Positions 8,423 to 39,486 of a DNA stretch of 64,000 nt are shown here, piece by piece. The notes under the pieces were generated by a model that had not been told where the DNA came from, searched no databases, and saw only the letters and a list, made by a program, of their open reading frames with translations. The DNA is from Terriglobia bacterium (GTDB lineage: Bacteria > Acidobacteriota > Terriglobia > 20CM-2-55-15): positions 992,001 to 1,056,000 of the forward strand of contig CAXWPJ010000002.1 of the NCBI GenBank assembly GCA_963664115.2. The letters run 5' to 3'. The translations under genes were made by a program, and so were the position numbers. The first letter of the stretch is position 1; every line of letters starts with the position of its first letter.

Positions 8423-8460
8423 CAAGTCCTGACAAATCTTGTCGGACCTTGAGAATTGGC
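8423..8460. repeat. REP-like palindrome, copy 2
   Basis: CAAGTCCTGACAA-atc-TTGTCGGACC-TTGAGAATTGGC. Confidence 0.55.
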
Positions 8461-8600
8461 AGGTAGCCCAGAATCATCTGAGTCCGTCGAGTCATTCCTT
8501 AAATCCAACGACTTTGAGCCGAGGCAGTGACCCGAGTTGCTGTCGAGGCAGGCAAGGTGCGTGACTCGCCTGCGTCGGGTGCGGCTCGGTTAGGTGCCTA

Positions 8601-9751
8601 GTGGTCCCCGTTAAACAGACTGTAACTTATCAAGATTTCGCCGGCCGCGCTGGACTTTAGCAAGGATGTCGGAAGCCGTTGCAGTCCAGATGAAGGGTTT
8701 CGGGTCTTCATTGTGACGAGCGAGGTAGTCCTCCACGGCCTGGATCAACTCGGGGACCGAGCGGAAAACGCCACGCCGGAGTCGTTGCTCGGACAGATCC
8801 CGGAAAAAGCGCTCGACCATGTTGAGCCACGACGCACTGGTTGGCGTGAAGTGCACATGAAAACGCTTGTTACGCTTGAGCCAGTTGACGACTTTCTGAT
8901 GTTTGTGAGTCGCATAGTTGTCGCAAATAATGTGGATCTCCTTATCTTTCGGCATGGCGCGTTTGATCTGATTCAGAAACCGGATCCATTCCTGATGGCG
9001 ATGCTTTGGCATGCAGGTTCCGATGACCGAACCGTCCAGGATGTTGAGCGCGGCGAAAAGCGTGGTTGTCCCGTTACGTTTGTAATCGTGGGTCATGGTG
9101 CCACACCGCCCCTTCTTCAGAGGTAACCCGGGTTGCGTGCGGTCCAGGGCCTGCATCTGGCTCTTCTCATCGCAGGACAAGACAATGGCGTTTTCCGGTG
9201 GGCTCAGATACAGACCGACCACATCCTCCAGCTTTTCGGCGAATCGTTTGTCGTTGGATAGTTTGAAGGTTCGTGACAGATGAGGCTTCAGTCCATGGAC
9301 CCGCCAGATTTTCCCGACCGTGGACTCGCTCACGCCAACGGCCTTCGCCATCGAGGCCCGACTCCAGTGCGTCGCGTTCGGGGGCTTCTCTTCCAGTGTC
9401 TTCTTGACGATCCGGGCTCGCTTCCGGCGACTGATCGTGGGAATCCGTCCGCTTCGCGGCGCATCCTTTTCGATCCCAGCCAAGCCCTGTTCCACAAAAC
9501 GATTGCGCCAGCGGCCCGCTTTCTGGCGCGTGATCTCCAAGCGGGCGGCGATCTCATAATTGTTCCGACCTTCAGCGGCCAGTAATACAATTCGGGATCG
9601 TTCCGCCAACCGGACCGATGTACTCCGGCTTCGACTCAGTCGCTCCAACTCCATCCGCTGCTTGTCATCCAATTCAATGGTCGGTGCTTTCCTCATTCTC
9701 TATTGGACGTTGGAAAGCTATTTTAGTTACATTACTTCGAGCGGGGTACAC
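8601..9751 (-). mobile_element. IS630-family insertion sequence
   Basis: Terminal IRs GTGGTCCCCG and GTGTACCCCG (rev-comp of right end); TA duplication at 8599-8600 and 9752-9753 within CTAG. Confidence 0.92.
8611..9696 (-). CDS. IS630 transposase
   Basis: HTH N-terminus; SCDEKSQ, HIICDNYATHK, FTPTSASWLNMVERFF DDE motifs. Confidence 0.95.
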   Translation of the reverse strand: MRKAPTIELDDKQRMELERLSRSRSTSVRLAERSRIVLLAAEGRNNYEIAARLEITRQKAGRWRNRFVEQGLAGIEKDAPRSGRIPTISRRKRARIVKKTLEEKPPNATHWSRASMAKAVGVSESTVGKIWRVHGLKPHLSRTFKLSNDKRFAEKLEDVVGLYLSPPENAIVLSCDEKSQMQALDRTQPGLPLKKGRCGTMTHDYKRNGTTTLFAALNILDGSVIGTCMPKHRHQEWIRFLNQIKRAMPKDKEIHIICDNYATHKHQKVVNWLKRNKRFHVHFTPTSASWLNMVERFFRDLSEQRLRRGVFRSVPELIQAVEDYLARHNEDPKPFIWTATASDILAKVQRGRRNLDKLQSV

Positions 9752-9920
9752 TAGGTATAAGATACCCAGAGGCAGCATCACAACCTTTATAGAGCCACAA
9801 TTGCCAGTGTATTGATTAGATCGCAAGGCGCAGTAGAGTTAGACGTGTCCGATGCCGGTTTCTCAATGTTAGACGGCTCGCATAGCGAGCCACTGTGTCC
9901 TTGGGAAGGAGCACGAATCA

Positions 9921-13800: not shown

Positions 13801-14808
13801 ATGAAGGCGGTCGTTTTACATGAAAAAGGTGGCCCGGAAAGTCTGAGAATCGAGGAAATCGATACGCCTCAAGCGGGCCCGGGTGAGGTACGGGTCAAAC
13901 TCAAAGCCTCGGCACTGAATCGGCGTGACTACTGGATCACGATCGGCCGGTATCCCGGAATGACCTATCCCATCACTGCAGGCTCCGACGGAGCCGGTGT
14001 GGTTGATGCTGTTGGCGAAGGCGGGGATATGTCTGCAATCGGAAGGGAAGTCGTGGTCTACCCGGCACGGGCGTGGGGCGACAGTCCACGCAAGTTCGGG
14101 CCTGATTTTCGGGTCTTGGGAATGCCCGATCAGGGCACCTTTGCAGAGTATATCTGTGTTCCGGCGAGCGATGTGTATGCCAAACCGGGACACTTATCCT
14201 GGGAACAGGCAGCCGCCGTTCCCCTGGCGGGTCTCACATCCTGGCGCGCAGTGGTGACGCATGCAGAAGTGGAACCGGGCCAGAAAGTTCTGGTGACAGC
14301 CGCCGGAAGCGGTGTGTCGACTTTCGCCATCCAGTGGGCCCTGGCCCGCGGTGGGGAAGTTTATGTCACCAGTGGGAGTGAAGGGAAGATTGACAAGGCG
14401 AAAGCAATGGGTGTGAGCGGTGGTGTGGTCTATCGCCAGGAAGAATTCACGAAGGAGCTTCGGAGGCTGTCCGGCGGCTTCGATGTGATCGTCGACAGCG
14501 CCGGTGGAGACGGCATCAACGTCTTGCTGGACACACTGAACGGCGGCGGCCGGTATGTGTTCTTTGGCGCAACGCTGGGTAATGCCTCCACCGGACTGGA
14601 AATGGCGAAGCTGTTTTTTCGACATATCCGTATTCAGGGCACGACCATGGGTTCACCGAAAGAATTTGCTGCGATGATGCAGTTTATCGCTGCGAATAAG
14701 ACCCAACCGATTATCCATCAGGTCTTTGCCATGGATGAGGCCGTGGCGGCGCACAAATTGATGGAGAACTTCAGCCAGATGGGCAAGATCGTGTTACGCA
14801 ACGAATAG
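13801..14808 (+). CDS. MDR-family NAD(P)-dependent oxidoreductase (quinone oxidoreductase/ADH-like)
   Basis: MKAVVL, LNRRD, GSDGAGVV, GTFAEY, AAGSGV, GTTMGS, GKIVL. Confidence 0.9.
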   Translation: MKAVVLHEKGGPESLRIEEIDTPQAGPGEVRVKLKASALNRRDYWITIGRYPGMTYPITAGSDGAGVVDAVGEGGDMSAIGREVVVYPARAWGDSPRKFGPDFRVLGMPDQGTFAEYICVPASDVYAKPGHLSWEQAAAVPLAGLTSWRAVVTHAEVEPGQKVLVTAAGSGVSTFAIQWALARGGEVYVTSGSEGKIDKAKAMGVSGGVVYRQEEFTKELRRLSGGFDVIVDSAGGDGINVLLDTLNGGGRYVFFGATLGNASTGLEMAKLFFRHIRIQGTTMGSPKEFAAMMQFIAANKTQPIIHQVFAMDEAVAAHKLMENFSQMGKIVLRNE

Positions 14809-14921
14809 GGACCCGGCAGTCTGAACGGAGGGAATCCTCAAATCGATAATAAATTCCTTTCCGGGAAACCCGGAGCGGTTCGTTAGTTCGTGTACTAATA
14901 ATTCGGGATACTGGAGCCCAT

Positions 14922-15171
14922 GGTTAGAAGTTCGGTTTTTGATGAATTCGTTCTTGCCCATCCGATCATTTAATTACTCTTAACGCCTCGGCTTCCGCCT
15001 CGTTGTTCACCCGCACCGTCGGACCGGTGCGGGTTTTGTTACGGACAAGACTTCAATTACGTCAATCCCCAACAAGCCTCTCCATCAGGATGATGGAGAG
15101 GGTCGCCGGTCGTTCGGCCAGGATGGCCGATTGAACGACCGAGCGAAATCTTTATTCGTGCGGTGCCAACT
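14922..15171. repeat. Structured repeated element, copy A (MITE-like or ncRNA)
   Basis: Reverse complement aligns in colinear blocks with 39119-39396; hairpins at 15009-15034, 15077-15101 and 15103-15146; left end GGTTAGAAG. Confidence 0.8.
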
Positions 15172-15225
15172 CAGCGTCGCAACTGAGTTATCTTCATTGA
15201 CCATCTGTTCGTTGGGAGTTGCTGC

Positions 15226-19008: not shown

Positions 19009-20857
19009 TCCCAAAACAAGCGCATAACCAGTCCGCCGAGGCCCAGTTCGCGCCGATAGAATTCGAGGCATAGAATCCCGTTCCCGGATGGCCTGTTCCA
19101 GGTATCGAGTTTCTGTTGAATCTGTTTCAGTTCAGCCTCGCTGGTGTTGGACGGTTGACAGAAACCGGGACCTCGATCGCCCGGGCTCAGAGTCATGATC
19201 GGGTCAACATCGCAGAGGCTGACGCAACACATCCACCCCGCGGAACAAGACCGGCAACCACCGGTTCCAGGCCAGGATCCGGAACAGAATGCGCCGCCCG
19301 GTGCGCACGAGTTGGCACGGCACAAGCATGAAAGCGTTCAAGAAGGTTTTGAACTCCATGCGCAGCACGGTTTGCTTCTCAGCCTGATATTTTTGGCCCC
19401 AACGTCCGGTTTCGGGAAGCAGCAATGCAAACCACGCTTTCAGTGTCCAGGCCAGTGACGCGATCACCATGTAGGCCCAGTTGCTGGTCTGATCTCCGAC
19501 CGGCATCCGCAACGCCTGAACGCCGTTCTTCAACTGCTCAATGAGATTCTCCTGATTGCACCGTTGATTGGCACGCATCACAATCTGGTCGGCCGGATCC
19601 GAACGGTTGGTAATGTAGAAGAAGTACCGGATGTCGTCAAACAACACCTGCTCTCCTTTGGCCACCGACAGATTCTTCCGCACCACGACGACACGGTAGT
19701 CCCGATCGCAGGCTCCGGGTCGATACCGAAACTCGGCCACATCCTCACCCTGCAAGCGGATATTGTCGAAACCGCGCTGCCGAACGATCTCTTCCTTCAC
19801 GTTGTCGGGACGTTGGCGCGGTTCGGTCGCCACGTCGTATTTCGCGGGCCGTTCCAGGCGCTTCCACTGGCGCGGCTCCAGTTCATCGGCCCGGGCCTTC
19901 AGGTTCGCCATCGCGTCAATCCCGAATATGAAACCCACCTGCTGGTCGTCCCATCCGTCCAGATGCCGGGTCTGGCTGAAGTCCGTGTCCCCGCGCAGCA
20001 GGATCTGGCGAAACCCCGCATGCCGGCACAATGCGATGGCTTGGTCGAACCGGACCGCGGCTCCTTCATGCGACGGCCGGTTGCCGCTACGATTGACCAG
20101 ATACAGCGGTTCGGCGGTGTTGGCCAGCGAGATCATCAGCGGGTGATATCCCCACGTCCCGTCGTAGGCCACGTCCATCCCTTGCTTGCATTCCCCCGTG
20201 GTTTCGGCCAGTGTCCCGTCCGCGTCCAACACCGCTTCTTCGAAAAACGCCGCCGGTTGCTGTCGCCAGACTCCGAGCCGGACTTGATTGGTTGCCTCCA
20301 TCAGACACTCCACGTCGTCGGCCTCGAATCTCCGGCAGAAGTCTCCCGCCGTCGTCGGATCCGGAATCCGTTGCGCTCCCAGCGCATCCAGATACACCGC
20401 ATCGTTGCGCCGCAGTTCGATGTCTTCCAGGCACGTTCCTCCGCTCAAGGCGTTGTAGGCGATGTTCAGCACGTGATCCGACTCGTGATACGGCAGGTGC
20501 CGCTTCAACACATGCACGCCCTTGTCGATGGCTTCGATCAGCCCGGTCCGCCGCGCCACCAGTTGCATCGTCCCGATACCACCAACCGATGTGCCCCGCG
20601 TCCGCTCTCCCATCTCGTACTGAATGTTGCTCGCCGAAAACATCGGCTCTACCTGATCCGTCCAATGCCGGTCCCCAAGCCGACGTTCGATTCGCCGCTT
20701 GCGGTTCCTCATGTTCTTGCGCGTATAATCGTTCATCTGAAATGCCTCCTTTTCCGAAGAATCTGTTCAAGGTTTTTTTCGCACGGAGAGGGGGCATTTC
20801 GGGTACTTCCGCTCTTATTGCACTATCATTTCCTCGTCAATCACGCTTGTTCAGGGA
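19009..20857 (-). mobile_element. IS1380-family element type A, copy 1 (1849 bp)
   Basis: IRs TCCCAAAACAAGCG and TCCCTGAACAAGCG; CTAG on both sides (19005-19008, 20858-20861). Confidence 0.93.
19204..20736 (-). CDS. IS1380 transposase
   Basis: LDADGT, GYHPL, LLRGDTDF, RCNQENLIEQLK motifs. Confidence 0.93.
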   Translation of the reverse strand: MNDYTRKNMRNRKRRIERRLGDRHWTDQVEPMFSASNIQYEMGERTRGTSVGGIGTMQLVARRTGLIEAIDKGVHVLKRHLPYHESDHVLNIAYNALSGGTCLEDIELRRNDAVYLDALGAQRIPDPTTAGDFCRRFEADDVECLMEATNQVRLGVWRQQPAAFFEEAVLDADGTLAETTGECKQGMDVAYDGTWGYHPLMISLANTAEPLYLVNRSGNRPSHEGAAVRFDQAIALCRHAGFRQILLRGDTDFSQTRHLDGWDDQQVGFIFGIDAMANLKARADELEPRQWKRLERPAKYDVATEPRQRPDNVKEEIVRQRGFDNIRLQGEDVAEFRYRPGACDRDYRVVVVRKNLSVAKGEQVLFDDIRYFFYITNRSDPADQIVMRANQRCNQENLIEQLKNGVQALRMPVGDQTSNWAYMVIASLAWTLKAWFALLLPETGRWGQKYQAEKQTVLRMEFKTFLNAFMLVPCQLVRTGRRILFRILAWNRWLPVLFRGVDVLRQPLRC

Positions 20858-24188: not shown

Positions 24189-25937
24189 CCCGGATTTCTC
24201 AAGAGATCTGAGATAAATCGAAACAGAGTACGACGGTAAAGGACCGAAAAAGGCCGCCCTGTCTGGCATAGAAGGTTTTGTCGAGAAACTTTCAAACCAA
24301 GACGGAGGCGGCCTTTGTCATGACAGAGTGTAAAACAGAAACGGTTCAATTTCACGCTTTGGGTTCACGCGAAGTACGCGGTCAATTCGACGGTGGAGAC
24401 ATCAGTTCCGACGGTGGCGGTTTGCTGCTGCGGGAGGTGGAGAAACGGACCGGCATTGTGAAACAGTTTGCCGGATGTTTCCAGGATCATCGGGATCCAC
24501 GATTTGTGGAACACCGCATCGAACAACTGGTGGGGCAACGGGTGTACGGACTGTGCCTGGGCTATGAGGATCTGAACGACCACGATGAACTGCGTTCCGA
24601 TCCGGTCCTGGCCGTGATGGTGGATGAGACCGATCCGAAGGGACGAGGTCGGAAGCAGGCGCGGGATCGAGGCAAGGCGCTGGCGGGCAAGAGCACGCTG
24701 AACCGGCTGGAGCTGTCGACCGAGGGTGCGGCCAACCATCCCTACAAAAAGATCGGCCGGAACGAAGGGGCGATCGATCGGTTGATGGTGGACGTGTTTC
24801 TCCAAGCCCATCGGCGAGCCCCACGGCAGATCATTCTGGACCTGGATGCGACCGACGATCCGATTCACGGGAATCAGGAAGGGCGCTTCTTTCACGGCTA
24901 CTACCGGCACTATTGTTATCTACCGCTGTATATCTTCTGTGGGGAGTTTCTGCTCTGTGCCCGGCTGCGACCCTCCGACATCGATGGTGCGGCCGGATCG
25001 GTCGAAGAGCTGGAACGGATCGTGGGCCAGATTCGACAGAAGTGGCCCCGAGTCCAGATTGTGATTCGGGCCGACTCGGGTTTCTGCCGCGATGAGATCC
25101 TGAGCTGGTGCGAGGCCCAGCACCGTGTCGATTACGTGATCGGACTGGCGAAGAACAAGCGGCTGCTCCGCGCGATTGAAACTCCGATGGAGAAAGCGAA
25201 GCAGCGATTCGACAGGACCGGAAAGTCGGCGCGCGTCTTTAAGACGTTTCAGTATCGGACCCTGGACAGCTGGACCCGAGAGCGACGCGTCATTGGCAAG
25301 GCCGAACATCTGGCCAAGGGCGCCAACCCGCGGTTTATCGTTACCTCGTTACCGAAAGGCCAACCCACCCCACAGCAGATCTATGAACAGATCTACTGTG
25401 CTCGTGGGGACATGGAAAACCGGATCAAAGAGCAACAGCTCGGATTGTTTGCCGACCGGACCAGCACGGCCACCATGCGCGCCAATCAACTCCGACTCTA
25501 CTTCTCATCGGTCGCGTACATGTTGATGCAGGCCTTGCGGCGGCTCGGATTGCAAGGTACCCAATTCGCGCGTGCGCAGTGCACCACCATCCGCCTGAAG
25601 CTACTCAAGATCGGAGCGCAGATCCATGTCACCGTCCGCCGGGTCTGGATTCGGATGGCCGGTGGTTATCCCTATGCCAACGTGTTTGCTCAGATCTACG
25701 CGAACCTTCAGAAAATTCCTCTGCGCTGTTAAACGCCTCCCCCGAACATCACGACCTTCCGGCCTCGGTAGGGATAGCTGTCTCCGAAATCCGCTTTCAC
25801 AGTACCGTTGTCATGAACGACAGTCCCGAAGCGCCCATTTCTCAGTTGAGCCGGTGCCTTTACTCGCGCCGCACCGCTCACGAACCCTATTCTGTCTCCA
25901 AAATACAGTTCCCGGCATCATTCATGAGAAATGCGGG
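24189..25937 (+). mobile_element. IS1380-family element type B
   Basis: IRs CCCGGATTTCTCA and CCCGCATTTCTCA; CTAG at 24185-24188 and 25938-25941. Confidence 0.93.
24320..25732 (+). CDS. IS1380 transposase
   Basis: ISSDGG, GYEDLNDHD, LDLDATDDP, RADSGF, YCARGDMENRIKE; SD GGAGG before ATG 24320. Confidence 0.95.
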   Translation: MTECKTETVQFHALGSREVRGQFDGGDISSDGGGLLLREVEKRTGIVKQFAGCFQDHRDPRFVEHRIEQLVGQRVYGLCLGYEDLNDHDELRSDPVLAVMVDETDPKGRGRKQARDRGKALAGKSTLNRLELSTEGAANHPYKKIGRNEGAIDRLMVDVFLQAHRRAPRQIILDLDATDDPIHGNQEGRFFHGYYRHYCYLPLYIFCGEFLLCARLRPSDIDGAAGSVEELERIVGQIRQKWPRVQIVIRADSGFCRDEILSWCEAQHRVDYVIGLAKNKRLLRAIETPMEKAKQRFDRTGKSARVFKTFQYRTLDSWTRERRVIGKAEHLAKGANPRFIVTSLPKGQPTPQQIYEQIYCARGDMENRIKEQQLGLFADRTSTATMRANQLRLYFSSVAYMLMQALRRLGLQGTQFARAQCTTIRLKLLKIGAQIHVTVRRVWIRMAGGYPYANVFAQIYANLQKIPLRC

Positions 25938-34497: not shown

Positions 34498-36346
34498 TCC
34501 CAAAACAAGCGCATAACCAGTCCGCCGAGGCCCAGTTCGCGCCGATAGAATTCGAGGCATAGAATCCCGTTCCCGGATGGCCTGTTCCAGGTATCGAGTT
34601 TCTGTTGAATCTGTTTCAGTTCAGCCTCGCTGGTGTTGGACGGTTGACAGAAACCGGGACCTCGATCGCCCGGGCTCAGAGTCATGATCGGGTCAACATC
34701 GCAGAGGCTGACGCAACACATCCACCCCGCGGAACAAGACCGGCAACCACCGGTTCCAGGCCAGGATCCGGAACAGAATGCGCCGCCCGGTGCGCACGAG
34801 TTGGCACGGCACAAGCATGAAAGCGTTCAAGAAGGTTTTGAACTCCATGCGCAGCACGGTTTGCTTCTCAGCCTGATATTTTTGGCCCCAACGTCCGGTT
34901 TCGGGAAGCAGCAATGCAAACCACGCTTTCAGTGTCCAGGCCAGTGACGCGATCACCATGTAGGCCCAGTTGCTGGTCTGATCTCCGACCGGCATCCGCA
35001 ACGCCTGAACGCCGTTCTTCAACTGCTCAATGAGATTCTCCTGATTGCACCGTTGATTGGCACGCATCACAATCTGGTCGGCCGGATCCGAACGGTTGGT
35101 AATGTAGAAGAAGTACCGGATGTCGTCAAACAACACCTGCTCTCCTTTGGCCACCGACAGATTCTTCCGCACCACGACGACACGGTAGTCCCGATCGCAG
35201 GCTCCGGGTCGATACCGAAACTCGGCCACATCCTCACCCTGCAAGCGGATATTGTCGAAACCGCGCTGCCGAACGATCTCTTCCTTCACGTTGTCGGGAC
35301 GTTGGCGCGGTTCGGTCGCCACGTCGTATTTCGCGGGCCGTTCCAGGCGCTTCCACTGGCGCGGCTCCAGTTCATCGGCCCGGGCCTTCAGGTTCGCCAT
35401 CGCGTCAATCCCGAATATGAAACCCACCTGCTGGTCGTCCCATCCGTCCAGATGCCGGGTCTGGCTGAAGTCCGTGTCCCCGCGCAGCAGGATCTGGCGA
35501 AACCCCGCATGCCGGCACAATGCGATGGCTTGGTCGAACCGGACCGCGGCTCCTTCATGCGACGGCCGGTTGCCGCTACGATTGACCAGATACAGCGGTT
35601 CGGCGGTGTTGGCCAGCGAGATCATCAGCGGGTGATATCCCCACGTCCCGTCGTAGGCCACGTCCATCCCTTGCTTGCATTCCCCCGTGGTTTCGGCCAG
35701 TGTCCCGTCCGCGTCCAACACCGCTTCTTCGAAAAACGCCGCCGGTTGCTGTCGCCAGACTCCGAGCCGGACTTGATTGGTTGCCTCCATCAGACACTCC
35801 ACGTCGTCGGCCTCGAATCTCCGGCAGAAGTCTCCCGCCGTCGTCGGATCCGGAATCCGTTGCGCTCCCAGCGCATCCAGATACACCGCATCGTTGCGCC
35901 GCAGTTCGATGTCTTCCAGGCACGTTCCTCCGCTCAAGGCGTTGTAGGCGATGTTCAGCACGTGATCCGACTCGTGATACGGCAGGTGCCGCTTCAACAC
36001 ATGCACGCCCTTGTCGATGGCTTCGATCAGCCCGGTCCGCCGCGCCACCAGTTGCATCGTCCCGATACCACCAACCGATGTGCCCCGCGTCCGCTCTCCC
36101 ATCTCGTACTGAATGTTGCTCGCCGAAAACATCGGCTCTACCTGATCCGTCCAATGCCGGTCCCCAAGCCGACGTTCGATTCGCCGCTTGCGGTTCCTCA
36201 TGTTCTTGCGCGTATAATCGTTCATCTGAAATGCCTCCTTTTCCGAAGAATCTGTTCAAGGTTTTTTTCGCACGGAGAGGGGGCATTTCGGGTACTTCCG
36301 CTCTTATTGCACTATCATTTCCTCGTCAATCACGCTTGTTCAGGGA
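34498..36346 (-). mobile_element. IS1380-family element type A, copy 2 (1849 bp)
   Basis: Same ends, length and translation as copy 1; CTAG at 34494-34497 and 36347-36350. Confidence 0.93.
34693..36225 (-). CDS. IS1380 transposase
   Basis: Translation identical to 19204-20736. Confidence 0.93.
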   Translation of the reverse strand: MNDYTRKNMRNRKRRIERRLGDRHWTDQVEPMFSASNIQYEMGERTRGTSVGGIGTMQLVARRTGLIEAIDKGVHVLKRHLPYHESDHVLNIAYNALSGGTCLEDIELRRNDAVYLDALGAQRIPDPTTAGDFCRRFEADDVECLMEATNQVRLGVWRQQPAAFFEEAVLDADGTLAETTGECKQGMDVAYDGTWGYHPLMISLANTAEPLYLVNRSGNRPSHEGAAVRFDQAIALCRHAGFRQILLRGDTDFSQTRHLDGWDDQQVGFIFGIDAMANLKARADELEPRQWKRLERPAKYDVATEPRQRPDNVKEEIVRQRGFDNIRLQGEDVAEFRYRPGACDRDYRVVVVRKNLSVAKGEQVLFDDIRYFFYITNRSDPADQIVMRANQRCNQENLIEQLKNGVQALRMPVGDQTSNWAYMVIASLAWTLKAWFALLLPETGRWGQKYQAEKQTVLRMEFKTFLNAFMLVPCQLVRTGRRILFRILAWNRWLPVLFRGVDVLRQPLRC

Positions 36347-36436: not shown

Positions 36437-37159
36437 ATGGGGCGGAAGGTGCCAAGAGACGCATTGTTGGAAGTGTCCCAGCAGCAGCATGAGTGGAGTT
36501 CGTCCGTTGTTACTGCAGCCGTGCCTGCGGTCGAGCTGTATATGATCCGCACGCCACGGCATCGACCCGCGCTGTTTTTGCCGCGCAGTTCACTTGAGCT
36601 GTGCGCCGCCACGGAGAGCAATCGATTCCGCCGCTTTATTCGCCGGATGATGAGGAATCGAAATTTCCTCATCCGTTGGGTCGGTCGGGTGACGCGGGGG
36701 GGATACCGCTACTATCAGAAACTTGAAGATAGGATCGACCCGCTCGAACGGATGATCAAGGCGCTTAACTGCCCGCGCTCGTTGCGTATCCTGCACGCTC
36801 CAAGCTCCAATCCGGAATCGCAGTTTCGGGATCTTCTGCGTGCGCAGATCATCAAGCACACGGCGTGGCTCATCGTCGACGGGGCCCTGACGACAGTTGC
36901 TGCGATGTTTTTCTGGGTGCTGGTGCCCATTCCGGGTCCGAACGTATTGTTCTATTACCCCGCATTGCGGTTAGCCAGCCACTACAGAGCCATGACCGGG
37001 GCGAGACGCGCGCTACACAGTATCGAGATCAAGTTTGATGCGCTGTCCAACTTGGCCCGTGTCGAAGAAGACCTCCGAAACCAGTCGAGCGGCACTGACG
37101 CAGATGAGTTCGTCACCGGTGTTGAGGGACTGGCAGTTTTTCTCAAACGATTCGTGTAG
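36437..37159 (+). CDS. Hypothetical membrane protein resembling the mitochondrial K+/H+ exchange-related (Mit_KHE1) family
   Basis: H..W.....LVPIPGPNVLFYY...R..SHYRA..GA; true start probably nearer 36521. Confidence 0.6.
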   Translation: MGRKVPRDALLEVSQQQHEWSSSVVTAAVPAVELYMIRTPRHRPALFLPRSSLELCAATESNRFRRFIRRMMRNRNFLIRWVGRVTRGGYRYYQKLEDRIDPLERMIKALNCPRSLRILHAPSSNPESQFRDLLRAQIIKHTAWLIVDGALTTVAAMFFWVLVPIPGPNVLFYYPALRLASHYRAMTGARRALHSIEIKFDALSNLARVEEDLRNQSSGTDADEFVTGVEGLAVFLKRFV

Positions 37160-37452
37160 TGGCCTGTACACCAAAATCGGGACCAGCGTTCGGGCCAAAC
37201 GGCGCTGGATTCCAGGAGACGACTTGGCGACGACTCGACGTCACAGCGACGAGGCAATGTCCCTGCATTCCGAGGAGTTGACGACAACGAAGGCAATGCC
37301 GATTCGCGGGAACCCTTTGGGCCGATGGGGGTTGCCGACGATATCTTCGTTACGAGCCGTCCTCGATGCAAAAACATCGATTTCCGTCTCGCGCCTCGAT
37401 CTCGCCAGCAAGACCCATCGGCGCTGGTCCCGATTTGGGTGGTACAGGCCAC
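37159..37452. mobile_element. Fold-back MITE, IS630/Tc1-type
   Basis: ~30-bp TIRs GTGGCCTGTAC(C)ACC(A/C)AAATCGGGACCAGCG; TA duplication at 37157-58 and 37453-54; no transposase. Confidence 0.85.
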
Positions 37453-37574
37453 TAGCAGCCCGCGGCAGCAGTCTGCGCGTTGTACTTTGAGGGATTCACA
37501 AGACATATGTGCGATGTGATTGGGTGCCCCGTTATACTGGCGTAAGCAGCTAAATTATAATGACATAACGCCAT

Positions 37575-39110
37575 ATGCACCTCCCGCTCGAAGCTATGCC
37601 GTCCGTATCTGCGCTGTTTCTGGACTACATTCAGGGTTCGGATCGCGCCCGTCAGTTCTTCTCCTACGATCACTCGTTGGACGCTGTCGCGGCTTTCGCA
37701 CGCGAGTCTGCACCCACTATTGATGCCACCCGTCGGGACAGCCTGACTGCGGCTCTGGAAGCGGGGCACAGAAGGTGGGGCCTGGACATAGACTCGATCG
37801 AGCGGCTGCGATCGGGTGCCGTAGCCGTCGTTACTGGCCAGCAGGCCGGACTCTTCACCGGCCCCATGTACTCGATCCTGAAAGCCCTGACTGCCGTCAA
37901 GCTTGCCAGGGCGCTGGTCGAACGGGGTGTTGAGGCTGTACCTGTATTTTGGATCGCGGCAGAAGATCACGATCACGAAGAGATCGAATGGGCCGGAATT
38001 CTAAGCGAGGACTCGACGCTCGGGAGGGTCACGACCCAATTGGGTGATGGCGCCCCGACACCGGTCGGATGGCTCCGCTTTGGTTCCTCCATCCAGGAAG
38101 CGATCGACGAGTGTTTCAGCTTCCTCCCGCCTTCGGAGCATCAGGACGAGGTGCGGACGCTTGTCGAAGACGCGTATTGTCCGGACGCGTCTCCGGTTGA
38201 TGCCTACGCCCGGATGATGGCCCGCCTGTTCAAGGATTCCGGGTTGATACTGGTGGATCCACTCGATTCGGGTTTGCGGGAGCTGGCAAAGGATGTCCTC
38301 GGGACTTTAGCGAGTCAGGTAGCTGCGGTTCGTTCGGCACTTCTGGCACGGGGCCGGAAAATTGCGGAGGCGGGTTACGCGGAGCAGGTGAGAGTCGACG
38401 AAAGCTTTACGGGGTTATTTGCCTATCGCGGCCGTGCCAGAGAGCCATTGGGGCCAGGAGACGAGATGGCTTCTCTGAGCTTGAGTCCGAACGTGCTTCT
38501 GCGGCCACTCGTACAGGATTCGCTGTTTCCGACGACCGCTTACGTGGGTGGGCCGGCTGAGATCGCCTACATGGCCCAGGCAGGATCCGTTTATGAGTGC
38601 ATAGGGAAGCCGATGCCCCCGATCTTCCCGAGGATTACGGCTACGTTGGTCGAGCCTCCGGTGGCACGCGTCATGAAGAAATATGATTTCAGCATCGCAG
38701 ACGTATTTCAGGGTATGGATAGCCTGAGAATGAGCGCGGTGTCCTCAGGTTCCGGGGCGGAGGTCTTCCGTGACGCACGTCAACGCATGTCCGATGAGAT
38801 GGCTCGTCTACGCCCGGTTCTGGAGGGCGTGGATCCCACTCTGGGTGGAGCCCTGGACAACGCCGTTCAAAAGATCATGCACCAGGTCGATACCTTGCAT
38901 GCGCGGTTTGTAAAGGGTGAGTCACGACGTGACGCAGTTCTGGAGAGACATCTGAAAACACTGACAACCCGTTTGTTTCCCGACGAGAAAGTACAGGAAC
39001 GTGTGGTGAACGTGACGACGTTTCTCGGTCGCTATGGCTTGAATCTCGTTCCGATGATGGATAGGGCTTTGGAACTCGACGGCTCGGTGCACCAGGTGGT
39101 TGAATTGTAG
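37575..39110 (+). CDS. bshC: Bacillithiol biosynthesis cysteine-adding enzyme
   Basis: VVTGQQAGLFTGP.Y...KA, VPVFWIAAEDHD, SPNVLLRPLVQD, YVGGPAEIAY, QER. Confidence 0.93.
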   Translation: MHLPLEAMPSVSALFLDYIQGSDRARQFFSYDHSLDAVAAFARESAPTIDATRRDSLTAALEAGHRRWGLDIDSIERLRSGAVAVVTGQQAGLFTGPMYSILKALTAVKLARALVERGVEAVPVFWIAAEDHDHEEIEWAGILSEDSTLGRVTTQLGDGAPTPVGWLRFGSSIQEAIDECFSFLPPSEHQDEVRTLVEDAYCPDASPVDAYARMMARLFKDSGLILVDPLDSGLRELAKDVLGTLASQVAAVRSALLARGRKIAEAGYAEQVRVDESFTGLFAYRGRAREPLGPGDEMASLSLSPNVLLRPLVQDSLFPTTAYVGGPAEIAYMAQAGSVYECIGKPMPPIFPRITATLVEPPVARVMKKYDFSIADVFQGMDSLRMSAVSSGSGAEVFRDARQRMSDEMARLRPVLEGVDPTLGGALDNAVQKIMHQVDTLHARFVKGESRRDAVLERHLKTLTTRLFPDEKVQERVVNVTTFLGRYGLNLVPMMDRALELDGSVHQVVEL

Positions 39111-39118
39111 GAGTCCGC

Positions 39119-39396
39119 GGTTAGAAGTCCGCGAAATATGATTTCGCTCGGTCGTTCGCTCAGATGACCATCTCTGTCGCGTTCCACGCGTGGTCTGAAC
39201 GACCGGCGACCCTCTCCATCATCCGTGATGGAGAGGCTTATTGGGAATTACGGAATCTTTATGCCGTGCTTAGAAATAACCCGCAGCGTTCCGACGGTGC
39301 GGGTGGACGGCCTTCAGAACGAAGAGGCGGTAGCCGAGACGTCAGAGTAAGAAAACGATCAAACCGAGCACGATAATTATTCGGCCGCCTTTAACC
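39119..39396. repeat. Structured repeated element, copy B (MITE-like or ncRNA)
   Basis: Homologous to rev-comp of 14922-15171; degenerate 34-bp TIR (about 22/34 ungapped matches) beginning GGTTA. Confidence 0.8.
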
Positions 39397-39486
39397 CCAG
39401 GAAGCGAGCTTCGTGGGGAGAAACCCGGCGCAGGATAGCGACATGAGATCATCAAGAGAGTCATTCAGCCGACCCTCAGACGCCAT

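Follow-up and report, generated by a model that had tools for sequence, protein, structure and literature searches.

The window analysed here, i.e., a stretch of 64,000 nucleotides from a Terriglobia bacterium (G000:C2:992001-1056000, where G000 is the genome under study and G001-G004 are its congeners), holds two related non-coding segments, copy A and copy B, that form hairpins with GGA in their loops. These segments raise the question of whether they belong to a mobile element, to an RNA that contacts CsrA, or to both, and of what keeps their hairpins. The earlier note had described them as two copies of a repeated element, either a CsrA sponge or a new MITE or RNA family. The element is indeed repeated, but it occupies 60 loci in G000 rather than two. 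Moreover, the five colinear blocks reported as common to copies A and B are all there, and the three GGA hairpin loops attributed to one strand are seen on the + strand of copy A, where two of them read CAGGATG (15086-15092 and 15119-15125). The element is very probably an IS630-type MITE, whichever explanation of its hairpin core holds. Its parts in the window, together with an autonomous IS630 element, are as follows:

14911..15182, no strand assigned: copy A, the whole element (~272 bp), very probably a MITE, between an alcohol-dehydrogenase gene and tauE
14911..14934, + strand: terminal inverted repeat of copy A, IS630 type, matching the family consensus at 17/24
14983..15001, - strand: conserved module GAGGCG-N-AGCCGAGGCGT of copy A, a small hairpin also present in repeats of genus g3
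15009..15034, + strand: hairpin H3 of copy A, 10 bp, loop TCGGAC (15019-15024)
15035..15076, no strand assigned: variable linker of copy A, 0.24 differences per site between nearest copies
15077..15101, + strand: hairpin H2 of copy A, 10 bp, loop AGGAU, closed by C-G and then U-A, the layout of RsmZ SL4
15103..15146, + strand: hairpin H1 of copy A, loop AGGAU on a covarying inner stem, below which a nearly invariant outer stem of 13 bp contains a one-base bulge
15159..15182, - strand: second terminal inverted repeat of copy A, strongly decayed (~10/24)
39107..39408, no strand assigned: copy B (~302 bp), with the long variant of H1, a hybrid H3, and its GGA loops on the - strand
8598..9754, - strand: autonomous IS630 element, 361-aa transposase, CTAG target

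Copies A and B lie in opposite orientations. The GGA loops of copy A are on the strand of both flanking genes, with the start of tauE ~100 nt from the nearest GGA loop, and H3 is directly followed by a T-rich run with a terminator-like match, which is present in this one of the two window copies. A scan of both copies for sigma-70-type promoters gave no match. The folding of copy A beats 200/200 shuffles on either strand (z of -4.2 on the + strand and -6.0 on the - strand). Copy B is inserted at the TAG stop of bshC, ahead of a gene for a bshA-like glycosyltransferase; at this stop site, no insertion is present in G001 and G003, the copy carried by G002 has near-perfect repeats, and G004 contains a lone IS1182-like end. 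The compensatory change between the copies that had been noted earlier (GGCCA/TGGCC versus GACCA/TGGTC) is real, although the arms in copy B enclose an inserted 22-nt hairpin. The extra G in the second loop of copy B is ungapped in contigs from 4/4 DNA runs, and in the DNA runs both copies are present with no join across either.

Comparison of positions 14808-14911 with L039, L040, and L041 indicates that a 280-aa gene between adh and tauE is kept in G001, G002, and G004, and lost next to copy A in G000. From its translation, we take this gene to be fdhD-like. At the same place, G002 and G004 retain complementary halves of the element.

Ends, target site, and spread of the family

A consensus built from 121 copies in five genomes displays a perfect 24-bp inverted repeat, CTAGTGTCCTGAGTCAGAAGTTCG, which ends in CTAG and outside which identity falls to background. 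Since this repeat marks the ends, the element spans ~14911-15182 in copy A and ~39107-39408 in copy B. The true ends, formed by the 24-bp terminal inverted repeats, are thus located ~11 bp further out than initially proposed, and the sequence GGTTAGAAG, formerly taken for the element end, is an inner piece of the repeat that lies at opposite core ends in copies A and B. The element is 272-302 bp long and has no transposase gene. Its terminal repeats are intact in L090, and those of the copies in G000 are mostly decayed (median 13-14 of 24). The left and right ends of G000 copies match each other at 12.8/22 positions, versus 12.2 across copies and 11.8 after shuffling. The idea that decayed ends are mere alternative repeats was rejected, because the self-match stays near the cross-copy and shuffled values and most of these ends are thus decayed.

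In loci from metagenomes, viruses, and the phylum, 18 elements of 1.15-1.45 kb end in this same 24-bp repeat, and L351, the one of these that was scanned, encodes an IS630 transposase (NF033545 at 282 bits). In G000-G004 as examined, an autonomous element with exactly these ends is absent, and the IS630 elements there end differently; the cognate IS630 partner was likely lost or transient. Among 196 ends, no clear similarity past the 24-bp repeat was found that would point to the closest autonomous parent. The proposal of a new MITE family is nevertheless borne out by the existence of same-ended autonomous IS630 elements and of empty sites, and one of the refuting outcomes named in the earlier note, a match to a known IS end, applies in part, since the ends match an IS family. 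Furthermore, the repeat bounds at least 56 short elements from metagenomes and other Acidobacteriota with palindrome-rich, unrelated cores; it appears from this that IS630-type ends may often capture host palindromes. The short same-ended elements include L212, L237, L314, L337, L341, L344, and L352.

Foreign copies with enough flanking sequence amount to 148, and 99 of them have a syntenic site in G000, which is empty in 79 cases and filled in 20, the filled sites being occupied in the opposite orientation in 4/20. Among 11 empty sites that were aligned, L069 is clean, with CTAG once in the empty site and TA at both ends of the filled one, L088 and L022 are nearly so, and the rest are less clean. 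The bshC stop site likewise agrees with CTAG in the empty state and TA on either side of the insertion. Since CTAG is the rarest four-mer in G000, repeated use of one site is likely. Moreover, most sites are lineage-specific and, thus, no single copy is essential.

An iterated nhmmer search of G000 gave 65 hits, merged into the 60 loci, of which 42 are near-full cores. As copies were detected via the core, wholly decayed ones are under-counted (10/42 recovered at 40% simulated change). The element is present in all four congeners, and G002 contains 147 matches to an 18-mer motif, with 0 for the control. A covariance model matched 9/35 genomes of the family, of which five belong to genus g1 and three to g3, with a single hit in g4; the g3 loci that were read have H3 and the 3' module alone in common with the element. 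BLAST against 26 genomes from other families returned no match, and the look-alike loci carry Terriglobia labels. In g3, H3 and the 3' module form inverted or tandem arrays (L008, L015, and L021 in G022; L009 and L465 in G025), in which an AGGAA loop is retained through compensatory stem changes. The core was also seen on two short non-Terriglobia MAG contigs (L023 and L026), which may be mis-binned.

Genomic location and conservation of the hairpin core

With gene positions taken from our own dicodon ORF caller rather than from curated annotation, 33/60 copies lie between convergent genes, versus 10-12 expected from three backgrounds (p<2e-9), and so do 8/30 copies of the young IS630. Among genes that end <=250 bp away and read into a copy, 44 do so on the TCC strand and 37 on the GGA strand (p=0.5). 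Harmless parasites, too, are expected to lie preferentially between convergent genes (PMC3049150, in part).

The core is conserved far above neutral sites. Its identity is 0.92-0.94 in every bin of terminal-repeat identity, from 0.42 to 0.92, and core-based detection cannot generate this contrast between core and ends because the contrast sits within single copies. Along the 169 tree edges that join nearest copies, the outer stem of H1 accumulates 0.04 differences per site, the 3' module 0.06, H2 0.08, and H3 0.09, compared with 0.24 for the linker, 0.25 for the tail, and 0.35 for the ends. Likewise, pairing extends to 86-95% of positions in the stems and to 54.5% between the two end repeats. 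In copies that share a site between genomes (n=11 pairs), identity is 0.88-0.94 for the H1 arms, H2, and the 3' module, 0.76 for H3, and 0.46-0.55 for the terminal repeats and linker. These same-site copies are no closer to each other than random paralogues (0.545 versus 0.588 in the linker). Identity of G000 to its congeners at four-fold sites is 0.43-0.68, with 0.64-0.68 for the genomes of the same-site pairs.

The earlier proposal that the structure is under selection is supported by covarying stems: 14/37 pairs change on both sides, and 0/500 shuffles score as high (38 short-variant copies, whose relatedness inflates this control). The compensatory changes mainly replace one Watson-Crick pair with another, and wobble pairs are balanced between strands (90:87), so that DNA hairpins fit the pattern as well as RNA. 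RNAalifold recovers H1 and H2 and misses H3 because of alignment shifts in the latter. Variants of H1, H2, H3, and an optional insert assort freely between copies, which points to gene conversion. The ends vary too: of 170 copies, both ends are of IS630 type in 41 and IS1-like in 7, one or both are IS1182-like in 9, and both are unclassifiable in 56. The IS1-like ends of the 7 copies are those of an element present in G000, which makes an 8-bp target duplication.

Candidate roles of the core

The explanation that we favour, held as a whole with moderate confidence, builds on what was observed above: the ends and target, sites both filled and empty, the biased location, covariation in the stems, the strong core conservation, and the reshuffled variants. 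It envisages a non-coding element of ~280 bp with IS630-type ends, which is found at CTAG sites at gene ends within one Terriglobia genus and was likely moved there in trans by an IS630 transposase. Selection on the fold of the RNA transcribed across gene 3' ends would be the likely reason why the hairpin core persists, with gene conversion between copies probably helping to maintain it and to reshuffle its variants. In read-through RNA from either flanking gene, the core may act as a REP/ERIC-like structure that affects transcript ends or stability, and contact with CsrA at two loops would be an added property and not the founding function. A role as mere structure has against it that the H1 outer stem is fixed in sequence, beyond what structure needs.

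A competing and rather improbable account holds that the core is selected as a dispersed CsrA decoy, in which dozens of copies would supply GGA-strand RNA, by read-through or after processing, with two or three stem-loops to which CsrA would bind. Binding of CsrA by the loops is plausible. In H2, the first A is kept in 164/170 copies, and the base after GGA is U in 133, A in 28, C in 6, and G in 3; between nearest copies this base changes 37 times versus 6 for the first A, and in the short H1 the corresponding counts are 8 and 0. A fixed first A with a free base after GGA fits CsrA recognition and would not be predicted from an A-U closing pair. The A(N)GGAX rule and the C-G/U-A closure are described for RsmZ (PMC4005645, in part). 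Moreover, two or more GGA loops fold on the GGA strand in 126/170 copies, versus 26/170 on the other strand and 1/56 unrelated same-ended short elements. Wobble pairs in H2 lean to the GGA strand (60:21; 26:15 per genome, p=0.12), a trend that in H2 and the inner stem of H1 is not significant when counted once per genome. Finally, PrrB/RsmZ (RF00166) recurs as a weak Rfam match, with a best score of 23.4 bits against a gathering score of 44 and 17-19 bits in 4/20 G002 loci, but no Rfam family reaches gathering in the window except a tRNA.

The loops themselves argue in both directions. Two or three A(N)GGA hairpin-loop motifs are present in 104/170 copies, one in 54/170, and none in 12/170. 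The loops of H1 and H2 vary in an RsmZ-like manner, but H3 is near neutral, with 0.17-0.40 changes per site in its loop columns, as in the linker, and GGA intact in 121/170, and one third of copies are without the H1 loop (replaced in 57/170, with GGA retained in 25 of those). Even H2 misses the first G of GGA in 30/170 copies and has GGA intact in 138/170. In addition, five-base loops without the N bind with lower affinity (PMC4005645, in part), copies A and B show no sigma-70-type promoter match, read-through has no strand bias (44:37), the opposite strand gives the more stable fold in 145/170 copies, and the decoy leaves the best conserved part, the H1 outer stem, unexplained. The related suggestion that neighbouring genes come under Csr control is poorly supported, since the GGA strand is sense and <=250 bp before a gene in 11/60 copies.

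The csrA gene is present in the genome, which had been put forward as a check, and flagellin leaders bear A(N)GGA hairpins; these leaders are likely native CsrA targets. By eye, such hairpins were seen in the leaders of 4/6 flagellin genes (G000:C9:633045, C9:629475, C9:72865, and C2:992140, the last at the start of the window). In g3, a related module is found in 3/3 csrA-bearing and 0/2 csrA-less genomes, numbers too few to weigh. Against the decoy, 24 csrA-bearing genomes of the family have no element match, and csrA is found in 32/34 other family genomes, mostly without the element. A second csrA-like gene in G000 (L002:1402-1629, at G000:C9:507406) is below the NCBIfam cut-off and lacks the RNA-binding arginine, presumably that of position 44; its match ends at position 43, and short matches of this kind are seen repeatedly in the family. 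The first csrA, above the cut-offs, lies beside flgL and a fliW-like gene. A role of the arginine in RNA binding is described in PMC4005645 (in part). The fliW-like neighbour also speaks against the decoy, since a protein antagonist of CsrA has been proposed for FliW lineages, including Acidobacteria, and these are thought to be without RNA antagonists (PMC4682653, in part).

It is also unlikely that the core is a DNA-level cis element serving the mobile element itself, with hairpins or a sequence that would be recognised in the course of copying, either as an enhancer of transposition or, akin to REP, as the substrate of a single-strand transposase, and with old sites refreshed by targeted conversion. 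Such an element would account for the sequence-fixed stem, the conserved bulge, the strict Watson-Crick covariation, the absence of an overall strand bias, and the sometimes inverted loops, as well as for one core between three kinds of IS end (IS630-type, IS1-like, and IS1182-like), the many other palindromic cores held by IS630 ends elsewhere, and the inverted and tandem pairs of the H3 module in g3. Genes for Y1 transposases are present in 5/5 genomes, but those examined are unflanked by the core, with a weak partial match at 1/18 loci, and a RAYT link was thus not found. Moreover, a transposition enhancer is expected to decay with the ends after immobilisation, which the core does not, and the asymmetry between the A and X positions of two loops falls outside the prediction. 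Conversion among copies and palindrome repair alone, with no selection, are highly improbable as the cause of core uniformity. Same-site copies resemble random paralogues and variants assort freely, as conversion would have it, but differences per site amount to 0.24 in the linker, which is central and separates H2 from H3, and to 0.04 in the H1 stem, which adjoins the decayed left end, and conservation thus tracks structure and not position; in addition, the stem sequence persists across species with 43% four-fold identity. Distinctly doubtful is, finally, the more far-reaching view that the hairpins make up a structured RNA module in its own right, which spreads with ends borrowed from three unrelated IS families, its 60-150 copies jointly forming a transposon-borne CsrA decoy in an acidobacterium that has FliW.

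The favoured explanation places the element closest to RUP of Streptococcus pneumoniae, ERIC, and Correia/NEMIS (PMC3184786 and PMC10969869, both in part, are further sources), and precedents are given by RUP and SPRITE (PMC3049150, in part) and by ERIC and Correia (PMC2229807, in part). Like RUP, ERIC, and Correia, it is short and transposase-free, with IS630-matching repeats and a TA target, and these elements are likewise intergenic, enriched between convergent genes, and stably folded (PMC2229807 and PMC3049150, both in part). Unlike them, it is longer (~280 bp) and GC-rich, has an interior better conserved than its ends, folds into several local hairpins where they have a single end-to-end stem, and is also seen with IS1-like or IS1182-like ends. 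With CsrB/RsmZ (PrrB) it shares AGGAX stem-loops on a C-G closing pair, H2 having the layout of RsmZ SL4 (PMC4005645, in part), whereas it has two or three sites, versus eight or more there, 60-150 mobile copies, a host with FliW, and neither a promoter nor a terminator of its own that could be found. REP/BIME/REPIN and SPRITE are also multi-copy modular palindromes at gene 3' ends with stems kept, but the present element has DDE-type inverted repeats and a TA duplication, is not located beside Y1 (RAYT-like) genes, and in most copies seen is devoid of a long U-tract. Literature searches listed no paper on this MITE family or on a CsrA sponge borne by a MITE, and the main text of PMC2996986, PMC13443453, and PMC11602168, in the parts covered and with supplements (including the MITE sequences of PMC11602168) aside, does not describe the family.

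A MITE family is ordinary in itself. Its inverted conservation is unusual: the interior outlasts the ends and travels between three kinds of IS end, which suggests how bacteria could distribute a structured module throughout the genome and retain it. Should CsrA bind the loops, the element would represent a mobile RNA antagonist within a FliW lineage.

Other mobile elements of the window and genome

The IS630 element at 8598-9754 has 30 full copies, with two close variants among them, and all lie in CTAG; four copies of this young IS630 type lie within the right end of the MITE family. It was considered as parent or mobiliser and was not assigned as such: family, target, and an AAGATTTCGC word are the same, but the repeats differ. 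This IS630 cuts another dispersed repeat at ~8423-8598, which contains the word AGCCGAGGC. At ~37157-37455, a second TA-ended short element abuts an IS1182-like end; its ends resemble those of an IS630 at G000:C9:159317 and have 11 matches in the genome. The window also contains three genes for DDE_Tnp_1_4 (IS1380-type) transposases (19204-20736, 34693-36225, and 24278-25732), the first two of which are equal in length and score and appear to interrupt genes. Elsewhere in G000, an IS1-like element with an 8-bp target duplication was observed at L446:160-3290 (G000:C4:64361-67480), with a second copy on C6; it carries an XRE/ImmA-peptidase gene and an unknown 228-aa partner.
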